62,926 nt of DNA, filler included, from Basidiobolus ranarum (GCA_040143965.1; 46 parts of 46 records of this genome joined end to end with filler, not necessarily neighbours in it), one strand, 5' to 3'. Positions 4,126 to 53,335 are shown, numbered from the whole stretch's first letter. Numbers and translations are program-made. Notes: generated by a model from the sequence alone, not told the origin.

Positions 4126-5399
4126 AGGAAAGTGGCATGGTCTGAGGCAGCAGGGCAAGGTAGATTGGATGGTGGGTCAATTGTGAAACAAGGATGGAAT
4201 CCATAATTTGCAAAGAAAGGAGTTTGCTTTGTTGAGGTATGATAAGAGTTATTGTAAGCAAATTCAGCAAGAGGCAAGAGTTGTGTCCAATTTTCCTGAT
4301 TATAGTCAATAGTGCATTGCAAATATTGTTTGAAAACTTCATTGAGTCTTTATATTTGGCCATCAGATTGGAGATGGAAAGCAGTGGAGAGATTGGCAGA
4401 GATACCCAAAGTATGGAGGAGACTTTTCCAGAATTTGGAAGCAAACTGAGGTCCTTGGTCAGAGATGCTAGTTTCAGGAAATCCATGTAGGCGGAAGATG
4501 TTTTGAGTTACCAATTCTGCTGTTTGTTTTGCATCAATTGACTTGTTGCAGGGCGCAATGTAGGCCATCTTTGTTAGATGCTCAACAATTACCAGAATTG
4601 AATGATATTTGGCAGACAAGGGTAGATCACTTATGAAATCCAGGGATATGGATTTCCACTGCTGATCAGGAATTGGAAGAGGCTGTAGGAGGCCATAGGG
4701 CTGATGTCTTGGAGTTTTCACTCAAGCACAAGTATCACAGGTCAAAACATAAGTCTTGACAAATGCAAACATTTTGGGCTACCAATGATACCTTGATGCC
4801 AACATATATGATTTGGCAACACCAAAGTGTCCTGCTAGTGGTGAGTCATATCTTTCCTGCATGATTTTGAGTCTGGAAGTGAGGTCTGGAATATAAAGTT
4901 GCTTCTTATAAAACAAGAGATCATTTATGATAGAGAAGTGGTGGTACAGGTTCAAGCTTGAGAGGTCTTTGGGTGTTTCCTGGGCTTTCTTGATTGATAT
5001 TACCAATGGGTCTTCAGATTGAAGTTTGTGGATGTTTTCATGGCATGTGCTTGAACTAGGCAGAGAAAAGGCAGTTGCACTATTTTGAAGTTGGTGGGGC
5101 TTTGGTAAGGAAGTATTTTGTTGGCCAAAGGCCTCATCCCCTTCTTTAGGCTGATATTCTGCTTTATGTGATAAGGCATCAGGCTTTCCTTGCTGGCTAC
5201 CTGGTCAACATGTAATCACAAAATCAAAACTGGCAAGAAATAATGTCCATCTTGCTTGACAACAGTTGAGAACTTTGTTGTACTAAAATACTGAAGATTC
5301 TTGTGATCACAATAAACTGTGATTTTGTGATTTGCTCCATCCAAGTATTGTTGCCATTGTTCAAACGCAGCAATAATTGCTAATAGTTCCTTGTAATAG
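4126..5399 (-). mobile_element. Ty3/gypsy pol (RNase H end and integrase), decayed
   Basis: KELLAI, DHKNL, AGHFG, GLLQPLPIP, ISLDFI, PQFASKFW, LAEFAYNN motifs. Confidence 0.92.
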
Positions 5400-15113: not shown

Positions 15114-15339
15114 ATCCCCATGATATTAATATTCTTTCACTATCTATCCAATTTGTTAAATGGATTGATAATGCTGAACTACTTAAGGCTACTTCTGAAA
15201 AAGCTATTAACCCTAATATTGCTGTCGTTCCGATTAGTGCGCTACTTAATATTTTACTTCCAGTGGCACCTAATTTTCTACCTAATAATCCACTGACTAC
15301 TGCACTAACTAAGGGTAATATAATAATTGTTAAATACAT
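15114..15339 (-). CDS. nad5: Mitochondrial NADH dehydrogenase subunit 5, 5' end
   Basis: MYLTIIILPLVSAVVSGLLGRKLGATGS...NWIDSE...ISWG; AT-rich mitochondrial codon style. Confidence 0.92.
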
Positions 15340-15399
15340 CCCCGTACAGCTACACTCCTATTTCTTAATTCCCTTCCTCATTCTCTTTTACGGTCCCGG

Positions 15400-16386
15400 C
15401 TTCGCATGATTGGTTCCCCCCGTATACCCATCCCCCTTCGAGGGGGGCCCCTCCCCAACCCCCCCCCATCCTCCCCCTCCCCCCTTCCCCCCCCCCTTGC
15501 TTCTCTCCCGGGATGCAGCCAGGGTTTAGCGGGGAGGCAGGGGGAGGGTTTACCGTCCTAGGTTGCGGGGGACCGGTTGAGAGGGGGAGGAGGACAGTGG
15601 GCCATCCAGCCAAGATTCCCCCCCACACCCACCCTTCCGCGCATTGCCCCCCCTCTCCCCCTCCCCCCACCCTACCTTAGTCGGGGGGGGGGTGGTGGGC
15701 CGATCCGTTTGCCCTTTCATACCCCCCCTCGACCCGCCGGGGGGCCACTTAAAGTGGCCCCCCTGAAAGGGGGCGGGGGCCCTAAGGGTGGCCCCCGCCC
15801 ATCTGAGGATGGGGGGGGAGATGGGGGGCACCCCCCCCCCTACTTAAGTATGAGGTGGGAGGAGTCATCATTTGGGGGGGCCACCCGTTAGCCCCCCCCC
15901 CCCCTTCCGGGGGGGGGGGGGGGGGACTTTTCGGGGCCCCCCGGGGAACCGCGGGGGGGGGGAAGCCAGTGTTTGTCGGAGAAGGGAATTGAACCCTTAT
16001 TCCCCATGTATGAAACGGATGTTCTAACCTTTAAACTACCCCGACAATTATTGATGGGCTTCGCAAGGGGAACCAAACTGATTCCTCCCCCGCCCTTCGG
16101 GAAAGGGGTGATTTGCAAAGCATTTCCCCCCATTGTTCCTTTCCCTTCCTTATTGGCCCCCCGAACTGCATAGCCACCTCCCCCCCCTCCAATCTGTGAA
16201 CTGATTTGGGAGGCAGTGAGTCCCCTCCCCCCTTGGTAGGGGGGCAGTTTAGCGAACGGCCGCGAACCCGATCCCTACACCGGGTTCCTTTACAGCCCCC
16301 CCCCCTGGTCCTTCGGCGCATTGCCCCCCCTCTCCCCCTCCCCCCACCCTACCTTAGTCGGGGGGGGGTGGTCCCCCCCCTCGGTG
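15400..16386. repeat. Mitochondrial GC clusters (G/C homopolymer hairpins) with a ~57-bp direct repeat at 15639-15696 and 16316-16372
   Basis: Perfect hairpin GGGGGGCCACT-TAA-AGTGGCCCCCC at 15739-15763; TTCG- and GAAA-capped stems. Confidence 0.8.
15974..16045 (-). tRNA. trnM: Mitochondrial tRNA with CAU anticodon (elongator Met or lysidine-type Ile)
   Basis: Cloverleaf GTCGGGG/CTCCGAC, anticodon loop TTCATAC, T arm AAGGG-TTCAATT-CCCTT; lacks the initiator GGG/CCC stem. Confidence 0.85.
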
Positions 16387-16517
16387 NNNNNNNNNNNNNN
16401 NNNNNNNNNNNNNNNNNNNNNNNNNNNNNNTTAATTAATTAANNNNNNNNNNNNNNNNNNNNNNNNNNNNNNNNNNNNNNNNNNNNATCCTATCCAGTTC
16501 AAATTGACTTTTCTTTG

Positions 16518-17371
16518 TTATGTTTTGGTGTAGAATTACACAGACTTCTAGTAAAACTCCTATTCTTCAGATATATAGCTGTAGCAACAGATTCTGCGCA
16601 ACACTTATGAGATATATTTTGTGCATTTATCATAGATAATGCCATTTCTACTAAAGTCCTTTTAGCTCTTTCAGCAACTCCTTTTTGTTGATGTCAATAC
16701 GGGGCAGTAGTTCCTTGCTTAATTCCATGCACTTTGCAAATGTGATTAAATAGTGTTGAAGTATATTGCCCACCATTATCAGTACATGTTTTCTTAATTT
16801 TAGTTCCATTATCAGTCTTTTCAATGCTTTAAAATTTCTAAAGATAGACAGAGCTTCTTCTTTTCTTTCCATAAAGTACACCTAAGTATATCTTGTATAA
16901 TCATCAATAAATGTGGTTAAATATCTTTTTCTGCCAAAAGATAAATTTTGCATAGGTCCCCATAAATCTGAATGAATTAGATCCTGTTTTCTGAGAGATT
17001 TGATTAAACCAGAGCTCTTGAATGGTTGCCTGACTTGTTTTCCATATATACAACCCTCACAAATTTTTCACTTTGGTTGGGGTGTTAATTTGAATTCCAG
17101 AAATTAGGCATTTTTTGATCACTTAGCTTAAATAATCAAATCCAATATGGCCATAATTGAATAGTTACTTGATTAGAATAACTTATACTTACACATAAAC
17201 CTCTTGGATTATGTGTAAGTTTGCATAAGTTCTGATCCTTTTCTCCCAAAGCTAAATAATTCCCATTTTAATCAGTGATGGTGCATCCTGACTTCTCAAA
17301 ATTGAATTTTAGCCCTTTGGAGGTGGCCTTGCATACAGATATTAAATTCTTGGCAATATCTGGAACATGTA
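16518..17371 (-). mobile_element. Ty1/copia integrase region, flanked by a CACTA right end (to ~16517) and left end (from 17372)
   Basis: Near-identical to 2760-3620. Confidence 0.85.
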
Positions 17372-17446
17372 CCATAACAGAAATTTGAGGATTGTGATCA
17401 TAGGAATGCCATCAAAATTTTAATCCATTTGGGATTGACCATTTAC

Positions 17447-17758
17447 TTAAGGCTACTGAATTGATTTGCTTGATAATCTTGAAAGGCCCTAGTCTTTTAT
17501 GATCAAGTTTAGCACAAGGTCTAGTGGTTTTGATATTTTTCTGGGGTAGCCAAACATAATCTCCTGGCTTAAGATCTGGGCTTGGCTTTCTTTTCTTATC
17601 AGCAACATTCTTGTATTGTGATTGAGCATGCTCCAACTTGGATATTGACTGTTTATGGATGTCCTTAAGGAAAGTGGCATGGTCTGAGGCAGCAGGGCAA
17701 GGTAGATTGGATGGTGGGTCAATTGTGAAACAAGGATGGAATCCATAATTTGCAAAGA
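17447..17758 (-). mobile_element. Ty3/gypsy integrase C-terminal (GPF) region
   Basis: KLDHKRLGPFKIIKQINSVA. Confidence 0.85.
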
Positions 17759-25453: not shown

Positions 25454-25985
25454 TTAACGGCGTGCAATGGTTGCTGTGATAAAACCGGATGGGTCACTGA
25501 CAGGTTGGAAAATGCTCATATCCTTGCCTTCATTGGCTAGGTTGAAGGGTTTGAGGTTGACATTGAAATAGTGCTTGTTGGGGAGTGCATAGCTGATCTC
25601 ACTAACATCTACGTGCTGAGCCAACACACTCTCTCCCATCTTATACATGGTGGCTTGTACTGAGGCCGAATCATCGGTAGCAAAGGTACTAAGGGTGATC
25701 TCACGAACACCAGAAGCAATCTCATCAAATGGAATAGACTCAATCTTGGACTTGTCTAAGCTGTAGGTCCACTTAGCATCGACACTGGTGGAGAAGATAC
25801 GATCGTGAGCATCTTGAAGGGTAGTGTATTCACAACGATGGAAGTTGGTGAAGTTTGAGCCAGTGGACTTGAGAACAAGAAGATCCTTAAGGCGAGACTC
25901 GATGGTGACATTACCACTGCGAGAGACAAGCAACTCAACGCGTCTAGTTTCTTCACCATCACGGAAGAAGGAATGAGGGTGAAGC
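25454..25985 (-). CDS. Uricase (urate oxidase) paralogue B, 3' half
   Basis: HPHSFFRDGEETR, LLVLKSTGSNF, DRIFSTSV, SASVQATMY, LPNKHYF, SDPSGFI. Confidence 0.95.
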
Positions 25986-26085
25986 NNNNNNNNNNNNNNN
26001 NNNNNNNNNNNNNNNNNNNNNNNNNNNNNTTAATTAATTAANNNNNNNNNNNNNNNNNNNNNNNNNNNNNNNNNNNNNNNNNNNN

Positions 26086-42522: not shown

Positions 42523-43791
42523 AGAATATTAGACTAAAGAAGGGGAGGAGGACTTTGGCCAACAAAATACTTCCTTACTGAAGCCCCACCAACTTCAAAT
42601 TAGTGCAACTGCCCTTTCTCTGCCTAGTTCAAGCACAATCCATGAAGACATCCTCAAATTTCAATCTGAAGACCCAGTGGTAATATCAATCAAGAAAGCC
42701 CAGGAAACATCCAAAGACCTCTCAGGCCTGAACTTGTACAGCCATTTCTCTATCATCAATGATCTCTTGTTTTATTAGGAGCACCTTTACATTCCAGACC
42801 ACACTTTCAGACACAAAATCATGCAGGAAAGACACGACTCACCACTTGCAGGACACTTTGGTATTGCCAAATCATATATGTTGGCATCCAGGAATTAATG
42901 GTGACCAAAAATGTTTGCATTTGCCAAGACTTATGTTTCCACCTGTGATACTTGTGCTCAAGTGAAGACTCCAAGACATCAGCACTATGGCCTCCTACAG
43001 CTACTTCCAATTCATGATCAGCAGTGGAAATCCATATCCCTGTATTTCATAACTGAGCTAAACATGTCTGCCAAATATGATTCAATTCTGGTAATTGTGA
43101 CTGTCTAAAAAAATGGCCCACTTTGTGCCCTACAACAAGTCACTTGATGCAAAACAAACAGCAGAATTGGTTACTCAAAGCATCTTCCACCTACATGTAC
43201 TCCATGAAACTATCATCTCTGACCCAGGACCTCAGTTTGCTTCCAAATTCCGGGAAAGTCTCCTCCATATCTTGGGTATCTCTGCCAATCTCTCCACTGC
43301 ATTCCACCCCCAATCTGATGGCCAAGCAGAAAGAGTCAATCAAGTTTTGGAACAATATTTGCAATGCACTATCAACTATAATCAGGATAATTGGACAGAA
43401 CTCTTGCCTCTTGGTGAATTTGCCTACCACAACTCCTATCATACCTCAACAAAACAAACTCCCTTCTTTGCAAATTATAGATTCCATCCATGTTTCAAAA
43501 TTCACCCACCATCCAATCTACCTTGCCCTGCTGCCTCAGACCATGCCACTTTACTTAAGGACATCCATAAACAACTAATATCTCAGTTGGAGCATGCTCA
43601 ATCCAAATACAAGAACTTTGCTGATAAGAAAAGAAAGCCAAGCCCAGATCTCAAGCCAGGAGATTATGTTTGGCTACTCTGGAAGAATATCAAAACCACT
43701 AGACCTTGTGATAAACTTGATCATAAAAGACTAGGGCCTTTTAAGATTATTAAGCAAATCAATTCAGTAGCCTTCCGCCTTGAACTCCCAG
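42523..43791 (+). mobile_element. Ty3/gypsy integrase, same family as 4126-5399
   Basis: AGHFG, HPQSDGQAERVNQVLEQYL, GPFKII. Confidence 0.92.
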
Positions 43792-43891
43792 NNNNNNNNN
43801 NNNNNNNNNNNNNNNNNNNNNNNNNNNNNNNNNNNTTAATTAATTAANNNNNNNNNNNNNNNNNNNNNNNNNNNNNNNNNNNNNNNNNNNN

Positions 43892-46358: not shown

Positions 46359-46645
46359 TAAGCTAGGCCTAAGAGTATTCCAGATAGGATGGAGCCAAGA
46401 GTGAAGTATTCCAGAAGGGATTGGGCCTGAGTAGGGTTAGGGTATAGATGTTAGGGGGGAGACAGTCACCAAAAGGTGAAATCTTTATTTCAAACAAAAC
46501 AAAGAAGCCATAACTACTTTTGTAGTTNNNNNNNNNNNNNNNNNNNNNNNNNNNNNNNNNNNNNNNNNNNNTTAATTAATTAANNNNNNNNNNNNNNNNN
46601 NNNNNNNNNNNNNNNNNNNNNNNNNNNTCCCAGAAGCAAAAAAGA

Positions 46646-46729
46646 GAAATTTAAATGATGACGTTACAATAGAAACAGTTATCCCTGTCCGAAAAGACTA
46701 TGTGGATAAAAATTGTAGACTGAAATTTC
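46646..46729 (+). ncRNA. snR38: Box C/D snoRNA, snR38 homologue, copy 1
   Basis: C box ATGATGA 46655-46661; guide CAGTTATCCCTGT plus D' CCGA 46676-46692; D box CTGA 46720-46723; terminal stem GAAATT/AATTTC; T10 follows. Confidence 0.88.
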
Positions 46730-47214
46730 TTTTTTTTTTGATTCGCCATTTTGGGAATTTGTTATATGAAGTATAAAATGTGACTACACTTTGATGAAAT
46801 TTTCCAAATTCATTTTACCAAAAATATGGACCAACTATGAATCGCTTTTGTTACATATTACTTACTAACTTTGGAAAATTCAGTTACTAGTTTACATATT
46901 TCTCAATTAATGTAAATATCTCGATGTTTCCTGATCTCCTCTGACAAACGCTAAATCGTTACAATAAAATTGTAACAGATACATCAACACTAGTTAAAAC
47001 CAGTAGGTATGTTGCATTCCAGACTTATACTGACCTGACAATCCACGTGCTATAAAGCTTCAGTATTTTAATATGTAATCGACGATTTATAGCTTTAACA
47101 CTTACAATTATTAACAAACCAATTATCCTAAGTTATTGTCATTTTCTAATCTCCAGATATTGAATCCTCAGAGATTCCATCCTATTGATAGTATACATCC
47201 AGAGTATGCATTGA

Positions 47215-47223
47215 TTTATATAT
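47215..47223 (+). promoter_or_regulatory. Upstream TATA element of a Pol III-type unit
   Basis: TTTATATAT about 30 bp upstream of the tRNA-like 5' end at 47249. Confidence 0.45.
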
Positions 47224-47248
47224 CCAATAAAAGCCCAATTTAATATGT

Positions 47249-47323
47249 ACTTCTGTGGTGCCCTGGAAAGCGCGTTCAAATAACCATAGAACGGCTGTGG
47301 GTTCGAATCCCATCCCAGAAGCA
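47249..47323 (+). ncRNA. Atypical tRNA-like leader (nominal AAC anticodon) with A box and B box
   Basis: ACTTCTG/CAGAAGC acceptor, GTGC/GCGC D stem, perfect GGTTCGAATCC B box; mismatched anticodon stem and 2 extra C after the T arm; its 3' end also at 46628-46638. Confidence 0.7.
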
Positions 47324-47330
47324 AAAAAGA

Positions 47331-47414
47331 GAAATTTAAATGATGACGTTACAATAGAAACAGTTATCCCTGTCCGAAAAGATCATGTGGATGAAAATTG
47401 TAGACTGAAATTTC
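47331..47414 (+). ncRNA. snR38: Box C/D snoRNA, snR38 homologue, copy 2
   Basis: C box 47340-47346; guide 47361-47373; D' CCGA 47374-47377; C'-like TGGATGA; D box 47405-47408; terminal stem. Confidence 0.88.
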
Positions 47415-47420
47415 TTTTTT
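47415..47420 (+). terminator. Oligo-T Pol III terminator (copy 1 at 46730-46739)
   Basis: T6 and T10 directly after each snoRNA stem; homology between the copies stops here. Confidence 0.7.
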
Positions 47421-47995
47421 GCACTGGCTGATTATGAATCGGCAATATCTGTGGGCGTTAACTCACTCAACATTTATAAGCTAACAATACTCTAAATACT
47501 GATTTGTGAGCTAAAAACCTTCAAACCATTGAAACCCCGGTTTTCGAGTGAGTTCAAGAGCTAAAAGTTAAATCGCGTCTAATCACTACTTAGAATTCAG
47601 TCAGTGGTTACCGCTTAGGAGAGCTTTTGTAAGTAAGAAGTAAGGTGGATTACAATGGATAGATGTTTGGGTGAGAGACATCTATTTGTCGGAGGTTTTG
47701 TATATCAACCCTGAAATCAACTCCCTTAACGATCACTATCTTTTGAGTTACCCAGATCCACCAACGGTGTCACCATTTACGTTCCTCCCTCACACCCCAG
47801 GTTCTACAGATACGACACTTGACCTAGCGATAGCACCAGGACGTAGATGATTCACTACCGTAACGAGTAAGATAAATATCAGAACACTCCTCATANNNNN
47901 NNNNNNNNNNNNNNNNNNNNNNNNNNNNNNNNNNNNNNNTTAATTAATTAANNNNNNNNNNNNNNNNNNNNNNNNNNNNNNNNNNNNNNNNNNNN

Positions 47996-52733: not shown

Positions 52734-53272
52734 ATGATCTAATGGGATGGTCGTATAAACCAGTTAGTCCCATAAAGTGCCAGAAGCTACGGGTCCCTCG
52801 AGCATATTCAAACAGGCTTATCAAGCTTTTGGTAACACTTTGTAGACTCCAAAGACCAATACGTTTCAAACGACGATTGCGCTCACGCTCATCTTGAACT
52901 AGTTGCGCAAATGCCTTTCCTACCTCTTCTGAGAGCGAGTCAACTAAACAACTATCATAGATTGTCCAGGACCCATCGAAATTAGACTGAAATTAACCAA
53001 AAGATGTTAGTACTAAAGCGGACGATAACTTCATCCAGGATGAATACTTACTAGGTCCAACTTCAACTGACACTTGATAGGGAGTCGGGGACGGTTGGCA
53101 TTCATATAGGCAACAATGGGACGAATTAAGGCATTGTTGAGGTAAGAGATATCTTGTGTTTGTAAAGGAACAGCGGCTTTGATGTTGTTAAAACGAAGAT
53201 CGAAATTCATGACCAAAGAGGCCTCAGAGTCCGAATCCAATGGGGTTTCGGAATGTTCCCTTCGGCCCCCAT
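52734..53272 (-). CDS. MDM31: Mitochondrial distribution and morphology protein 31/32, C-terminus with one intron
   Basis: SYLNNALIRPIVAYMN.NR..LPI.C / FDGSWTIYDS / RRLKRIGLWSLQ. Confidence 0.88.
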
Positions 53273-53335
53273 CTAATTGGATAAGGCATCAGACTTCTAA
53301 TCTGAGGATTGTGGGTTCGAGTCCCACCGGGGGTG
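53265..53335 (+). tRNA. tRNA-Arg(UCU) with a damaged 5'/D-stem region
   Basis: TCAGA-CTTCTAA-TCTGA anticodon arm; GTGGG-TTCGAGT-CCCAC T arm; about 3-4 nt missing before the D loop. Confidence 0.75.

Follow-up and report, generated by a model that had tools for sequence, protein, structure and literature searches.

A snR38-family small nucleolar RNA behind a tRNA-like leader in a Basidiobolus ranarum assembly: a probable RNA polymerase III gene

We analyzed a 62,926-nt stretch of DNA (the window) from the Basidiobolus ranarum assembly GCA_040143965.1, which is made up of 46 unlinked contigs of 1265-1275 bp each, ordered by size and joined by N44-TTAATTAATTAA-N44 linkers. Two direct copies of a small nucleolar RNA (snoRNA) of the box C/D class and the snR38 family were found on a single contig (46628-47895, 1268 bp), and the complete copy stands directly downstream of a transfer RNA (tRNA)-like element with a perfect B box. 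[quoted passage not shown] The sequence anatomy itself is real and is not due to chance; from it we infer Pol III transcription, a joint precursor, its cleavages, and methylation of ribosomal RNA (rRNA). The features of the two copies are as follows.

46628-46645, plus strand: copy 1, last 9 nt of the leader acceptor strand and the linker, cut by the contig start; identical to 47313-47330
46646-46729, plus strand: copy 1, snR38-family box C/D snoRNA (Rfam RF00213)
46730-46739, plus strand: copy 1, T10, putative Pol III terminator (sequence reading)
47217-47223, plus strand: TATA-like TATATAT, at -34 to -28 from the first base of the leader (sequence reading)
47251-47322, plus strand: degenerate tRNA-Val(AAC)-like leader, 72 nt (ARAGORN at 95% of threshold)
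47256-47266, plus strand: weak A-box-like TGGTGCCCTGG, with the B box about 42 nt downstream, a spacing like that of tRNA genes (sequence reading)
47300-47310, plus strand: B box GGTTCGAATCC in the T arm (pattern GGTTCRANYCC)
47322-47330, plus strand: A-rich linker CAAAAAAGA, 9 nt, able to pair with the 3' U tail (sequence reading, fold)
47331-47414, plus strand: copy 2, snR38-family box C/D snoRNA (Rfam RF00213)
47331-47337/47408-47414, plus strand: copy 2, 7-bp terminal stem (sequence reading)
47340-47346, plus strand: copy 2, box C ATGATGA (sequence reading, Rfam alignment)
47360-47373, plus strand: copy 2, guide ACAGTTATCCCTGT, directly 5' of D' (sequence reading, Rfam alignment)
47374-47377, plus strand: copy 2, D' CCGA (sequence reading, Rfam alignment)
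47389-47394, plus strand: copy 2, C' GGATGA (GGATAA in copy 1; sequence reading)
47405-47408, plus strand: copy 2, box D CTGA (sequence reading)
47415-47420, plus strand: copy 2, T6, putative Pol III terminator, at which the similarity between the copies ends (sequence reading)

The RNA is a snR38-family box C/D snoRNA. When the copies were compared with Rfam RF00213 (snoR38), copy 1 scored 46.5 bits over 46646-46729, which meets the gathering cut-off of 45 bits, and copy 2 scored 44.8 bits over 47331-47414 (E 7e-6 on the contig), 0.2 bits below it; both span the whole model (positions 1-91). For comparison, metagenomes were scanned with the snR38 core pattern, which gave at least 115 loci with at least 120 units. 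These comparators are not close to the Basidiobolus snoRNA outside the guide, and they show what is usual for snR38, not the habits of Basidiobolus relatives. The guide adjoining D', ACAGUUAUCCCUGU, is that of the RF00213 consensus and of the 120 metagenome homologues listed. The spacing is also typical: a gap of 14 between box C and the guide, as here, occurs in 17 of the 120 listed units, and the D'-to-D distance of 27 is the commonest value (21/120). Members of RF00213 include Arabidopsis snoR38Y, human snR38A, and yeast snR38, which have homologous Gm targets in the large-subunit (LSU) rRNA, namely Gm2805 in plant, Gm4362 in human, and Gm2812 in yeast (PMC3511168); the yeast target is given as nucleotide 2815 in PMC8527467. 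The Neurospora crassa homologue, CD23, is intronic and directs Gm2773 via D' (PMC2780460). Pairing of the present guide with LSU rRNA is taken from its conservation and from the literature target, and would fall at the equivalent of yeast G2815.

The two 108-nt copies (46628-46735 and 47313-47420) start 685 bp apart and are identical at 105 of 108 positions (97%). In the alignment, all three differences fall in the 3' half of the snoRNA, between D' and C' and inside C'. They spare boxes C and D, the 14-nt guide, and the 7-bp terminal stem, which each copy has in intact and identical form. The leader-linker-snoRNA junction is likewise common to both. Similarity stops exactly at the T run, beyond which the flanks are unrelated: local alignment of the flanks past the T runs scored 10 against a shuffle mean of 12.0, and 199 of 200 shuffles reached 10. 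A residual similarity past the T runs, as paired by MAFFT, was rejected by the same shuffle test. The original prediction had described two copies 685 bp apart, C/D'/C'/D boxes with a terminal stem and T6, homology ending exactly at the T tract, and membership in the snR38 family, and all of this was borne out. Its description of tandem dicistronic units was right as to two snoRNA copies and went too far as to the units, of which one is complete, copy 1 being cut by the contig edge. Neither further snoRNAs or leader units (Rfam, E<=1) nor further copies of the unit beyond the two were found in the 62.9-kb window. In the spacer between the units, a 13-nt near-copy (12/13) of the segment from box C to the guide lies at 46957-46969, perhaps by chance or as the trace of a decayed third copy.

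The truncation of copy 1 is a matter of assembly and not of biology, because the contig begins at 46628, its first base, inside the unit. Over its first 70 nt, copy 1 repeats copy 2 exactly. Exact matches to other window sequence were found for ten of the 92 contig ends, indicating that repeats are where the assembly breaks; copy 1 therefore has a leader that is unseen rather than absent.

The leader of copy 2 was not called by ARAGORN at default, and at 95% of threshold it was called as tRNA-Val(aac) with a 72-nt cloverleaf. This cloverleaf has mismatches in the acceptor stem (6:67), the D stem, and the anticodon stem (30:40), and it carries C at position 37. The best Rfam match to the leader was tRNA-Sec (47250-47321; 17.3 bits, E 0.2 on 95 nt), with a weak mascRNA-like match alongside. 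With no default ARAGORN call, 17.3 bits in Rfam, three mismatched stems, and C37, the leader does not qualify as a functional tRNA, and its sequence identifies it as a decayed tRNA gene, not a working tRNA. Its minimum-free-energy fold retains acceptor, anticodon-like, and T arms (z -1.3). In the fold of 47250-47420 (z -1.6), the snoRNA forms a separate domain closed by a 13-bp outer stem, in which the linker and the 5' stem are paired with the 3' stem and the U tail.

Of the promoter elements, the B box is perfect and the A box partial, and transcription of the leader is putative. The motif GGTTCRANYCC occurs three times in the window, where 0.25 occurrences would be expected, and two of the three belong to real tRNA genes. 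The third lies on the same strand as the snoRNA, with its last base 29 nt before box C; given an expectation of 0.25 sites per window, chance adjacency to the snoRNA is very unlikely. The A-box-like TGGTGCCCTGG matches the consensus TRGCNNAGTGG in part. The upstream TATATAT carries little weight in an AT-rich (35% GC) contig. After the discriminator G47321 the sequence reads CAA and not CCA, a context that permits RNase Z cleavage.

The T runs of both copies start 6 nt after box D. Six or more T within 15 nt after box D were found in both copies here and in 4 of the 115 evaluable comparator units listed, three of the four being near-identical loci. No run of four T occurs in the 164 nt of leader and snoRNA (47251-47414), the longest being 3. 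The unit thus has the layout of the plant genes discussed below: the snoRNA lies directly 3' of a tRNA-like element, with a 9-nt linker, no terminator between the two, and a single T run after. A tRNA-Arg(TCT) gene at 53265-53335 (Rfam 40.7 bits, uncalled by ARAGORN), which served as an internal comparator for a normal Pol III gene, has TTTT 3 nt past its end and no TATA-like element upstream. A tRNA-derived upstream element, a perfect B box, a TATA near -30, and no T run between leader and snoRNA had all been predicted, and each is present: the AAC-anticodon cloverleaf, the motif at 47300-47310, TATATAT at -34 to -28, and internal T runs of at most 3.

In the mechanism suggested by these features, the decayed tRNA-Val(AAC) gene would serve as an internal promoter through its perfect B box and weak A box, with the TATA-like element near -30. 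Pol III would start a few bases upstream of 47251, read through the 72-nt leader, the 9-nt linker, and the 84-nt snoRNA, and stop in T6 (copy 2) or T10 (copy 1), giving a precursor about 175 nt long. With its acceptor/T-arm helix retained and CAA in place of CCA after the discriminator, the leader could be cut by RNase Z after 47321 and by RNase P at 47251. The snoRNA ends would then be trimmed to the 7-bp terminal stem and the leader discarded. The mature small nucleolar ribonucleoprotein would methylate a conserved G of LSU rRNA (yeast G2815) through D' and the +5 rule.

Among the comparators, snR38 is also found in another setting. In 38 of the 115 listed loci (among L003-L114), box C is preceded on its own strand by a homologous GST_N exon, the end of which lies 37-98 nt (median 56) away. 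The host gene of L038 (1432-2960) continues into GST_C and EF1G domains, indicating that the host is EF-1gamma. It resembles TEF4, the EF-1gamma gene with an intronic snR38 in Saccharomyces cerevisiae. From these sequences, residence of snR38 in an EF-1gamma intron is widespread among environmental contigs of eukaryotes, which are probably fungi. The family and the guide are the same there as here, whereas the GST_N exon 37-98 nt upstream is replaced here by the tRNA-like leader. A tblastn search of the window with the GST_N exon peptide (E<=10) returned no EF-1gamma exon, and the unit is not EF-1gamma-intronic. No Pfam-recognisable exon lies beside the unit on its contig; the only longer open reading frame (ORF) there, 47644-47847, has no protein-database homologue and no Pfam match, and a pseudo-ORF across the unit had no match in protein databases. 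In L070 (about 1545-1930), a snR38 with D' CCGA occupies an intron that follows another kind of coding exon, suggesting that the snoRNA changes hosts. The peptide of that exon resembles pyruvate dehydrogenase E1-alpha by eye only. As read from these loci, a derived origin of the tRNA-like-leader layout is supported, in line with the predicted move of snR38 under a tRNA-derived promoter.

Tests for a similar leader among the comparators were negative. In the 120 listed units ARAGORN called no tRNA, whether run at default or with the threshold at 95%; with the threshold at 85% it made a single call, on the opposite strand. A bare GTTCGA within 80 nt was found in three near-identical listed loci only, none of them B-box-like.

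Several observations weigh against a Pol III gene of the kind proposed. One complete leader-snoRNA unit, copy 2, is available, and the copy 1 leader is observed for 9 nt only. The predicted A box is there as an A-box-like site at 47256-47266, and it is poor, agreeing with the consensus at about 6-8 of 11 positions, depending on the register. The z-scores of both folds are unremarkable, and a lack of TTTT over 164 nt is also seen in 33% of random windows of the assembly. T runs can follow an intronic snR38 (the four among 115 listed comparators mentioned above, and the EF-1gamma-type locus L023, which has a T9 farther 3'). D' CCGA is rare, with 2 instances in the 120 listed units. GGTTCRANNCC was found within 220 nt upstream of none of these 120 units, and a pattern linking B box, box C, and guide had no matches in genome contigs or in viral contigs; neither these collections nor the metagenomes are known to hold Basidiobolus DNA. 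Finally, splice-site-like motifs lie near the units (GTATGT at 47007, GCTAAC at 47480, and ACTAAC at 46864).

The last of these points bears on the strongest alternative, to which we would give a minority chance: the snoRNAs may belong to an RNA polymerase II (Pol II) unit, whether clustered in a polycistron, as a gene of their own, or within introns of a non-coding host gene, with a tRNA or short interspersed nuclear element (SINE) relic co-duplicated and the T runs incidental. Fungal C/D snoRNAs are mostly intronic or driven by Pol II, 45 of 55 being intronic in N. crassa (PMC2780460). The 5' splice-like and branch-point-like motifs stand in compatible order around both copies, although 5' splice-like motifs are equally frequent on both strands, three on each, and the contig offers neither an exon-like ORF with a Pfam match nor an EF-1gamma exon. 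Tandem duplication would not be foreign to a Pol II gene, since 5 of the 115 listed loci hold two snR38 copies without any B box. The poor score of the leader as a tRNA also counts for this alternative, but a mere passenger would hardly account for a perfect B box that ends 29 nt before box C, at a junction that the two copies have in common. Some intronic snR38 copies are followed by T runs; a run of at least six T directly after box D is nevertheless rare, as counted above.

A less probable alternative is that the two units arose by SINE-like or other dispersal of a Pol III transcript or module and are perhaps not working snR38 genes, the functional copy possibly lying in an EF-1gamma intron. 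This would suit an assembly rich in repeats, as judged from the exact matches of its contig ends, a contig whose break falls within the unit, at an exact repeat of 70 nt, a similarity that ends at the putative transcript 3' end between unrelated flanks, a rare D', and a C' that differs between the copies. Against it, boxes C and D, the guide, and the terminal stem are intact and identical, with the three differences outside them; the unit ends in a T run and has no A-rich tail, and no target-site duplication was seen (by eye only); and the window holds these two copies and no others. Dispersed copies would, moreover, still imply a Pol III leader-snoRNA transcript as their source. An assembly artefact, in which the 685-bp linkage is a wrong path through a repeat in a highly fragmented assembly and the true relative position of the copies is another, is very improbable: the first 70 nt of the 1268-bp contig do recur exactly in its interior and further contig ends lie in repeats, but the three differences, T10 versus T6, and the different flanks mean that two distinct genomic copies exist, and the complete copy 2 unit lies well inside the contig, so that the case for a Pol III leader-snoRNA gene holds whether or not the linkage is correct.

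The contig 46628-47895 has 35.3% GC, and its trinucleotide profile correlates at 0.89 with the pooled rest of the window, the sixteenth-lowest value of the 46. By its composition, its membership in the assembly, and one ORF on another contig, it is very probably from Basidiobolus. That ORF, a uricase ORF at 25454-26029 on the minus strand, shares 95% identity with a protein of Basidiobolus ranarum and 81-87% with paralogues in B. meristosporus. Further window contigs carry a Nup133 fragment and pieces of long terminal repeat (LTR) retrotransposons; a Copia-type gag (Retrotran_gag_2) and a Tf2-1-like SH3 (Ty3/gypsy-type) fragment, at 2245-2650 and 43101-43847, point to LTR retrotransposons in the genome. 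The contig 15114-16386 is different, with 59% GC and a trinucleotide profile that makes it an outlier against the remaining 45 (r = -0.16). A tRNA-Met (60 bits) was found on it, together with matches below threshold to small RNAs of alphaproteobacteria (BjrC80, 36 bits, and ar14), and it is probably a bacterial contaminant or associate in the fungal assembly. As to the contig ends, the 3' end of contig 16487-17758 overlaps the 5' end of contig 4126-5399 end to end and exactly over 91 nt, and several further ends have matches of 27-56 nt in the interior of another contig; it should be possible to join some of the contigs. A fixed k-mer overlap was ruled out as the cause of the contig break, the end overlaps ranging from 27 to 91 nt.

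Leaders derived from tRNA and carrying A and B boxes drive snoRNAs in plants, in yeast SNR52, in Caenorhabditis elegans UM2, and in Drosophila (PMC2527325, PMC2566860, PMC5356446). In Arabidopsis, rice, poplar, and grapevine, tRNA-snoRNA genes are processed by tRNase Z, examples being tRNA-Gly(GCC)-snoR43 in Arabidopsis and poplar and tRNA-eMet-snoRNA in rice (PMC2566860). The Basidiobolus unit is like these genes in its putative tRNA-type internal promoter upstream, the C/D snoRNA directly downstream on the same strand, the single T run, and the presence of several paralogous copies. It is unlike them in that the plant leader is a working tRNA whereas the leader here is a decayed tRNA-Val(AAC)-like element, in that the snoRNA is snR38 and not snoR43, and in the kingdom. 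As the acceptor/T-arm helix is kept, release by tRNase Z, as in the plant genes, is plausible.

In yeast, SNR52 and RPR1 carry A and B boxes in their 5' leaders (PMC5356446), and the A/B-box element UM2 of C. elegans is co-transcribed with snoRNAs in transcripts that end at T runs, the joint transcripts being confirmed by rapid amplification of cDNA ends (PMC2527325). With these and the Drosophila genes, the present unit would share A and B boxes in a removed 5' leader, a snoRNA product, and a T-run end, here as read from sequence alone. The leaders of yeast snR52, RPR1, and ZOD1 are not foldable into a tRNA-like structure according to Acker et al. (PMC2566860). The Basidiobolus leader, in contrast, still draws a full cloverleaf and therefore looks intermediate between the plant type and the yeast type. 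Among fungi, Yarrowia lipolytica has dicistronic tRNA-5S rRNA and tRNA-Trp-RUF70 genes, which are transcribed by Pol III and present in many copies (PMC2566860). They too have a fungal tRNA gene driving a downstream non-tRNA gene, but there the leaders are functional tRNAs and 5S rRNA or RUF70 lies downstream, where we find a snoRNA.

No literature report of such a unit was found for snR38, for Basidiobolus, or as a natural fungal gene besides SNR52. A 2008 survey states, in the part that treats fungal genomes, that no Pol III fusions beyond tandem tRNA genes were found in those examined, Yarrowia's own aside (PMC2566860), and in a passage of a 2009 paper tRNA-snoRNA genes are called exclusive to plants (PMC2780460). 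The main text of a paper on the fungal snoRNAome (PMC5824354) mentions neither snR38 nor polymerase III, and its supplement may list snR38 contexts of early-diverging fungi. The novelty claimed by the original prediction thus stands in so far as no paper was found on this layout for snR38, but has to be narrowed, since the design of a tRNA-derived Pol III leader is known from four lineages. What is new here is the snoRNA family, the lineage of fungi, and the tRNA-like appearance that the leader has kept. A bolder version can be offered tentatively, although we think it unlikely: snR38, anciently a snoRNA of the EF-1gamma intron, may have been captured in Basidiobolus by a tRNA-Val-derived Pol III leader and the cassette may be spreading across the genome as a self-contained, possibly mobile module, in which case it would be a living intermediate between the plant and SNR52 types and the first natural one in fungi with a tRNA shape still competent for RNase Z.

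Because the principle is established elsewhere, the gain from a Pol III-driven snR38 in Basidiobolus would be incremental. If the proposed gene is confirmed, it would mean that a deeply conserved snoRNA can switch both its polymerase and its host, and an early-diverging fungus would join the short list of lineages with tRNA-led Pol III snoRNA genes. Since the leader still draws a cloverleaf, it would also support the idea that leaders of the SNR52/UM2 type are worn-down tRNA genes. The cassette would, in addition, be a natural expression unit for small RNAs in a poorly tractable group of fungi.

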